From a virus (lineage: Duplodnaviria; Heunggongvirae; Uroviricota; Caudoviricetes), in the IMG/VR virus record IMGVR_UViG_2534682324_000033: a stretch of DNA of 18,500 bases; one strand, given 5' to 3'. The translations under genes and the position numbers were made by a program. Each line of letters starts with the position of its first letter. Positions within the stretch are counted from its first letter, which is position 1. The notes beneath the pieces were generated by a model. It worked only from the letters and a program-made list of their open reading frames with translations. It ran no database searches and was not told the origin of the DNA. This document shows positions 11,982-12,078 of the stretch, in pieces.

Positions 11982-12078
11982 ACCTTCCTCGGTTTAGTGT
12001 TTTTTTGCGAGTTTAGTGTTTAATAAACCATTAAGTCAAGTATTTGCTTGTTTAGTGATTACTAAAGATAATTACCAC
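11982..12078. promoter_or_regulatory. divergent immunity-region control region with three GTTTAGTG operator-like repeats
   Basis: GTTTAGTG at 11992-11999, 12011-12018 and 12050-12057, between the divergent Cro-like and repressor genes. Confidence 0.5.

Follow-up and report, generated by a model that had tools for sequence, protein, structure and literature searches.

Octamer repeats between paaR2 and ydaS of cryptic prophage CP-933P as probable halves of the operators of its immunity switch

The locus and its repeats

Three identical octamers in the control region between two divergent phage regulator genes raise the question of whether they mark the operators of a lysogeny switch and, if so, which part of each operator is read by the repressor and by the Cro-like protein. 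The interval concerned, 11982–12078, is the entire 97-bp gap between the start codon of ydaS (11981, minus strand) and that of the opposite regulator (12079, plus strand) in the 18,500-nt stretch of phage DNA analyzed here (the window). It was 100% identical to E. coli O157:H7 chromosomes, two EDL933 assemblies included, and all 17 of the tested primers (among them FL1/FL2, Footprint1/2, PRM, PR and PL) from a direct study of the CP-933P paaR2–ydaS switch (Jurenas et al., 2021, mBio; PMC8630535) mapped exactly to the window. Because of this identity and of the exact primer matches, the locus is the published operator region, i.e., the paaR2–ydaS intergenic (immunity) region of the cryptic prophage CP-933P, named Sp12 in strain Sakai. 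The published gel-shift probe FL1/FL2 corresponds to 11982–12078, the same interval that was singled out by the first-pass annotation, while the footprinted fragment corresponds to 11940–12128, the PRM and PR reporters to 12006–12079 and the PL reporter to 12943–13060. The finding of the first-pass annotation is, therefore, a correct rediscovery of something already known.

The surrounding prophage is a defective lambdoid element with O-like, DnaC-like, Q, RusA, hokD, dicB and lysis genes. Rfam matches above the gathering score included the DicF sRNA (14227–14278, plus strand), the sok antitoxin RNA beside hokD (7207–7381, minus strand), the STnc100 sRNA (3099–3271, minus strand) and three tRNA genes located upstream of the Q-like late region (4045–4291, minus strand). 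The paaR2 product produced no match in the Pfam search, but in the PDB it corresponded to 7nkv, 8c3k and 8c3l ("Phage repressor protein CI", E = 5e-41), which cover the N-terminal domain. The ydaS product matched PDB entry 8c7k ("Phage antirepressor protein Cro", E = 1.5e-63), and a further YdaS structure is deposited as 8co2. A literature search for these five entries found no describing paper, and a later one defining the contacts may exist. The features of the locus are listed in Table 1.

Table 1. Genes, promoters and operator sites of the CP-933P immunity region, in window coordinates.
Feature	Coordinates	Strand	Description
ydaT	11257–11682	−	CII analogue; Pfam YdaT
YdaT primary site OM	11672–11689		TTGATTTTCATGAATCAA; covers both the ydaS stop and the ydaT start; published site (PMC9986795)
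ydaS	11679–11981	−	100-aa Cro-like helix-turn-helix protein; PF15943, HTH_3
Site 1	11992–12009	+	Half-site GTTTAGTGT, then a T-run and GCG; no symmetric partner
PR933P (ydaS-ydaT)	12010–12039	−	−35 TTGACT 12039–12034, 18-nt spacer, −10 TAAACT 12015–12010
Site 2	12011–12028	+	18-bp dyad, halves GTTTAGTGT and TTAATAAAC, over the PR933P −10 and spacer
Degenerate fourth repeat (IR2 of PMC8630535)	12030–12047	+	Putative position, across both back-to-back −35 hexamers
PRM933P (paaR2-paaA2-parE2)	12044–12072	+	−35 TTGCTT 12044–12049, 17-nt spacer, −10 GATAAT 12067–12072
Site 3	12050–12067	+	18-bp dyad, halves GTTTAGTGA and TTACTAAAG, in the 17-nt PRM933P spacer, filling it exactly
paaR2	12079–12450	+	123-aa CI-like repressor without peptidase domain; 100% identical to EDL933
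paaA2	12471–12662	+	PF21217 PaaA2; antitoxin-toxin pair with parE2, co-transcribed with paaR2
parE2	12664–12942	+	PF05016 ParE
PL933P (with OL sites)	13014–13060	+	−35 TTGACT 13027–13032, N16, −10 TAAACT 13049–13054
OL sites	13014–13031; 13036–13053	+	GTTTAGTTT at 13014; perfect palindrome GTTTAATGTTTATTAAAC at 13036–13053

The three exact copies of GTTTAGTG reported by the first-pass annotation were confirmed on the plus strand at 11992–11999, 12011–12018 and 12050–12057, and an exact search of both strands of the 18.5-kb window returned only these three against a chance mean of 0.47 for the whole window. The first copy does lie close to the Cro-like gene, 11–18 nt from the ydaS start codon. 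The repeat can be extended to 11 nt, as GTTTAGTGTTT in two copies and GTTTAGTGATT in one. Any 8-mer occurring three times without overlap inside 97 bp was found in 47 of 300,000 composition-matched mononucleotide shuffles and, in the real window, at one other place only, the iteron array of a replication gene. The clustering of the octamers is far beyond chance. A scan of the window allowing one mismatch was uninformative (15 matches versus 12.8 expected).

A role of the repeats as replication iterons was rejected, the iteron-like array being situated within the O-like gene (10272–11249, minus strand) at 10810–10899. This array comprises five overlapping 30-nt repeats with a period of 15 bp, including three copies of ACGGGTCA at 10835, 10865 and 10880, and resembles the iterons of a lambdoid origin of replication that lies inside the initiator gene.

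Promoters, dyads and published binding

The promoter PR933P was located by a consensus scan combined with a pattern search, with a predicted start at about 12003. PRM933P was recognized by reading the sequence; its transcription start is the A of the paaR2 ATG at 12079. The 5′ RACE starts published for the same DNA match both predicted promoters, and the paaR2 mRNA is leaderless according to 5′ RACE, mass determination and N-terminal protein sequencing (Jurenas et al., 2021), the latter giving the same MQKKE N-terminus that is encoded in the window.

The gel-shift and footprinting experiments proposed by the first-pass annotation had already been published for both proteins, and both bind. PaaR2 and YdaS each shifted the 97-bp fragment specifically, forming several complexes, and in DNase I footprints PaaR2 protected approximately 78 bp and YdaS 27 plus 32 bp, each covering both promoters; binding in vitro required more than 1 μM protein. 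With gfp reporters, both OR promoters were repressed by both proteins, up to 45-fold, while PRM was stimulated approximately 4-fold at low PaaR2. YdaS filled PRM first and PaaR2 repressed PR more strongly, and the locus was bistable. PaaR2 was octameric in solution, had no peptidase motif and did not respond to mitomycin C. The PL promoter, with OL1–3, was repressed approximately 100-fold by each protein (all Jurenas et al., 2021). The oR-type layout claimed for the region is, consequently, supported by binding, footprints, repression and bistability obtained on the exact sequence.

The same study described four 18-bp inverted repeats with the half-site consensus GTTTAGTAA, of which IR1 (at PRM) and IR3 (at PR) are well conserved and IR2 and IR4 have one good half each, and also three "pseudosymmetrical" operators, OR1–OR3, of roughly 24 nt. 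Its authors left the precise binding sequences to be determined and regarded direct as well as inverted repeats as possible (Jurenas et al., 2021). The suggestion of the first-pass annotation that the octamers are operator-like repeats is supported with a qualification: the octamers are real, but the unit kept in evolution is an 18-bp inverted repeat whose better half is the octamer, and the paper counts four of these. The dyad-symmetric sites that overlap both promoters in the window consist of two strong ones, sites 2 and 3, and the lone half-site at 11992. We infer that sites 1, 2 and 3 correspond to IR4, IR3 and IR1 and that IR2 occupies 12030–12047; this fourth repeat was undetectable with the half-site matrix described below, and conservation at its position is confounded by the −35 hexamers. 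Site 2 is the main candidate for the repression of ydaS-ydaT by PaaR2, and site 3 is a candidate for both the shut-off of paaR2 by YdaS and the autorepression of PaaR2.

The motif search proposed by the first-pass annotation was carried out over the whole window with a 9-nt half-site matrix. Its training set of 30 distinct 18-mers came exclusively from distant relatives and left out the E. coli clade to which the window belongs. The top three 18-bp dyads of the scan were site 2 (25.7 bits), the palindrome at 13036–13053 (22.2 bits) and site 3 (21.8 bits). After a large drop these were followed by 13014–13031 and 13043–13060, both at PL, and then by nothing comparable. Since the top dyads of the window are all located there, the motif is confined to OR and OL, as expected of the operators of a lambdoid repressor. 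The hexamers of PL933P are identical to those of PR933P.

The half-site of site 1 scored 12.5 bits, and its 18-mer was absent from the top dyads of the whole-window scan. It is centered at about +2.5 from the predicted start of PR, in the stretch that separates this start from the ribosome-binding site of ydaS. Site 1 lies outside the reporter fragments 12006–12079, yet these were repressed up to 45-fold (Jurenas et al., 2021), so site 1 is dispensable for repression at high regulator levels.

Another high-scoring half-site, GTTTATTAA (13.2 bits, equal to the right-hand half of the PR dyad), was present within ydaS codons 5–8 (11959–11967, minus strand) as a part of a 21-nt inverted repeat, 11950–11970/12015–12035. 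Formation of an RNA structure by this inverted repeat in the rightward transcript was rejected, since its folding was no better than that of shuffles (z = −1.19).

Conservation among relatives and the recognized unit

Loss of the repeats from prophages with the same repressor had been named as an outcome that would speak against an operator function. Instead, all three octamers are retained in 53 of the 55 viral contigs with a PaaR2 identity of at least 97%; the other two contigs each have a single G-to-A change in one octamer. Phage Evi, with a region 98.4% identical, retains all three as well. The T-run at 12000–12006 was polymorphic among the near-identical prophages, with T6, T7 and T8 in 9, 41 and 5 loci, respectively, giving sites 1 and 2 a spacing of 18, 19 or 20 bp. 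Due to this variation, the phase between sites 1 and 2 is not tightly fixed.

A distant set of 27 loci with a PaaR2 identity of 43–76% came from Photorhabdus, Xenorhabdus, Yersinia, Erwinia, Raoultella, Enterobacter, Morganella, Arsenophonus, Massilia, Mycoavidus and other genera. Around the two −35 hexamers these loci give a gap-free alignment, and in the 27 other-genus loci together with 80 viral contigs two dyads occupy fixed positions relative to the promoters. The dyad in the PRM spacer is GTTTAGnnAnTACTAATC in at least 25 relatives, while the dyad at the PR −10 in the distant relatives is GTTTATTAAACACTAAAC or a close variant. Column information reached 1.4–1.8 bits in the outer half-sites of the PRM-spacer dyad, was lower in its center and amounted to 0.41 bits at site 1, these figures being read with the caveat that operator conservation overlaps the conservation of the promoter hexamers. 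Conservation of the PRM-spacer dyad is not explained by promoter function alone. Site 1, on the other hand, is an unpaired half-site that is peculiar to the CP-933P lineage and not conserved outside of it.

A divergent YdaS homologue was present in 22 of the 27 distant loci. Two Erwinia loci had no YdaS homologue and nevertheless kept both dyads, together with a PaaR2 N-terminal domain 76% identical, which indicates that the operators follow the DNA-binding domain of the repressor.

A sister immunity group, comprising E. coli OkiPb01713 and loci L083–L093, had a repressor 72–74% identical overall, as determined by tblastn (crude ungapped figures understate it). This repressor and PaaR2 have almost the same N-terminal domain, but the PRM dyad of the group carries an altered left half, GTTTTGCG, and an extra 153-aa helix-turn-helix gene is inserted between the repressor and the PaaA/ParE pair. 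The group may represent the CP-933M-type paaR1 system.

The distance from the PRM −35 hexamer to the repressor ATG was 29 nt in most genera (loci L003–L029), with the exception of Photorhabdus and Xenorhabdus, where the leaders were 77–108 nt long. A leaderless repressor mRNA thus appears to be an old and conserved feature.

The comparison also revealed a difference in the orientation of the PR operator. The PR dyad of CP-933P, GTTTAGTGTTTAATAAAC, is, with a 1-nt shift, the exact reverse complement of the equivalent 18-mer in six distant relatives, and against 38 distant loci it matched at 16.2 of 18 positions when flipped and at 13.2 of 18 as written. The relationship suggests that the inner 8 bp, which are asymmetric, became inverted between the two palindromic 5-bp arms GTTTA/TAAAC. 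As the PR dyad is flipped relative to the distant loci, the same-orientation appearance of the octamers is peculiar to CP-933P. The ancestral design had the two strong half-sites facing each other, which favors the dyad over a direct repeat as the recognized unit.

A tentative and rather unlikely extension of these observations is that CP-933P has remodeled the ancestral switch, the flipped PR dyad and the extra half-site together creating an array of GTTTAGTG half-sites in one orientation with steps of approximately 19–20 bp. The octameric PaaR2 may read this array in a way other than the pairwise cooperativity of lambda; it might, for instance, wrap the DNA or block transcription at +2.

Recognition of a direct repeat instead of a dyad is improbable. 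According to this explanation, units of TTTGC-N2-GTTTAGTG spaced 19 and 39 bp apart, corresponding to the "pseudosymmetrical" OR1–OR3 above, would be occupied by PaaR2 arranged head-to-tail on one face of the DNA; it would account for the single orientation of the three octamers and for a 24-nt direct repeat (12004–12027 and 12043–12066, 83% identity), it would suit an octameric protein, and it was the option kept open by Jurenas et al. (2021). However, the strong half-sites of the distant relatives face each other, the TTTGC flank is absent at their PR site, the dyad partners are conserved, and the spacing between sites 1 and 2 varies by ±1 bp even among near-identical loci.

Still less credible is the explanation of the octamers as by-products of promoter signals and AT-richness, with the proteins contacting other bases of the footprints. 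The complement of the octamer does contain the −10-like TAAAC, site 2 overlaps the PR −10, the region is 69% A+T, and the one-mismatch scan gave no enrichment, but comparable clustering was very rare in the shuffles, the dyad has stayed symmetric within a promoter spacer, a stretch in which RNA polymerase constrains the sequence little, the same motif reappears at PL, and the published footprints cover the sites. Binding of a host nucleoid protein (IHF or Fis) in place of the phage regulators, to which AT-richness alone would point, can be dismissed, because purified PaaR2 and YdaS by themselves bind and protect the fragment and repression was observed in a K-12 host lacking the prophage (Jurenas et al., 2021).

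The proposed switch and its relation to known systems

Very probably, then, the octamers represent the best-conserved halves of operator sites of the CP-933P immunity switch, placed over two back-to-back promoters. PaaR2 as the CI analogue and YdaS as the Cro analogue would both recognize 18-bp dyads of the form GTTTAGTnn|nnACTAAAC by means of related helix-turn-helix motifs sharing SYLSQ, with the contacts presumably made to the GTTTAG/CTAAAC bases, as the symmetry and conservation suggest. PaaR2 bound at site 2, over the PR −10, would switch off ydaS-ydaT and, at a low level, would stimulate PRM, while YdaS at its preferred region, or an excess of PaaR2, would switch off paaR2-paaA2-parE2 from site 3. 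The degenerate repeat over both −35 hexamers would hold a position like that of lambda OR2, and the half-site at 11992 would extend the protected region beyond the PR start. We infer which site is filled first by each protein at base resolution, as well as any role of site 1. Both proteins also close PL, where the second operator set lies at 13014–13060, and their mutual repression would result in a bistable switch. YdaT acts separately, at TTGATTTTCATGAATCAA, to which the window has a single match, an exact one.

The segment SYLSQ(L/M)xSGR occurs in both PaaR2 and YdaS, equally far from the N-terminus in each (encoded within 12079–12180 and 11880–11981, respectively), and BLASTP aligned the two proteins with 35% identity over 46 aa (E = 3e-4). 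This segment is the putative recognition helix, and its presence in both fits two proteins reading one half-site. KEKSYLSQL, part of the region that aligns with YdaS, did not vary in any of the PaaR2 relatives, which come from many genera. Since this segment and the outer bases of the half-sites hardly differ between genera, the operator specificity is probably common to a broad family and not a property of this prophage alone, for which the first-pass annotation had taken the repeats to define the immunity specificity.

In enterohaemorrhagic E. coli, the switch governs the early genes of a cryptic prophage as well as an operon encoding a toxin and its antitoxin. The modest new value of the present analysis is comparative: the design with two dyads and a leaderless repressor extends from E. 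coli to Photorhabdus, Yersinia, Erwinia and some Betaproteobacteria. Beyond the published work, the comparison points to the dyads as the recognized unit and marks site 1 as a lineage-specific extra.

Compared to the published OR of CP-933P/Sp12 (Jurenas et al., 2021), the DNA analyzed here has no difference: the 97-bp interval, the promoters and the repeats are the same. The racR–ydaS region of the Rac prophage in E. coli K-12 is similar in having a repressor gene divergent from ydaS-ydaT, several repressor operators in the gap and a YdaT box almost identical to that of CP-933P. It differs in a YdaS only 26% identical, in a repressor, RacR, which is not of the PaaR2 type, and in that the Rac YdaT also binds the intergenic region, whereas the CP-933P YdaT does not.

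In phages 434 and P22, the repressor has residues of its recognition helix in common with the Cro of the same phage, and hence both use the same operators. The shared SYLSQ(L/M)xSGR of PaaR2 and YdaS resembles this arrangement, although both the sequence families and the operator sequences are different.

The likeness to lambda OR is the most extensive. It includes the divergent repressor and cro genes with PR and PRM, the leaderless repressor mRNA, the action of both proteins on the same sites with opposite preference, the activation of PRM at low repressor, the second operator at PL and the oligomerising repressor. Counted from the PRM start, the site centers of CP-933P are at −20.5, −40.5 (the degenerate repeat, at its putative position), −59.5 and −78.5, the first three resembling lambda OR3, OR2 and OR1; in lambda, OR2 lies around −42 and OR3 around −21. 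In contrast to lambda, CP-933P has four repeats approximately 19–20 bp apart with only two good dyads, one of the sites is located downstream of the PR start, and a toxin-antitoxin pair is co-transcribed with the repressor. PaaR2 and YdaS are not detectably related to CI and Cro at the family level, PaaR2 having no Pfam match. The C-terminal S24, RecA-sensitive peptidase domain of the LexA-like, self-cleaving CI family is missing from PaaR2, which places it outside that family; the switch still works like that of lambda. CP-933P thus represents a lambda-like bistable circuit built from unrelated proteins.
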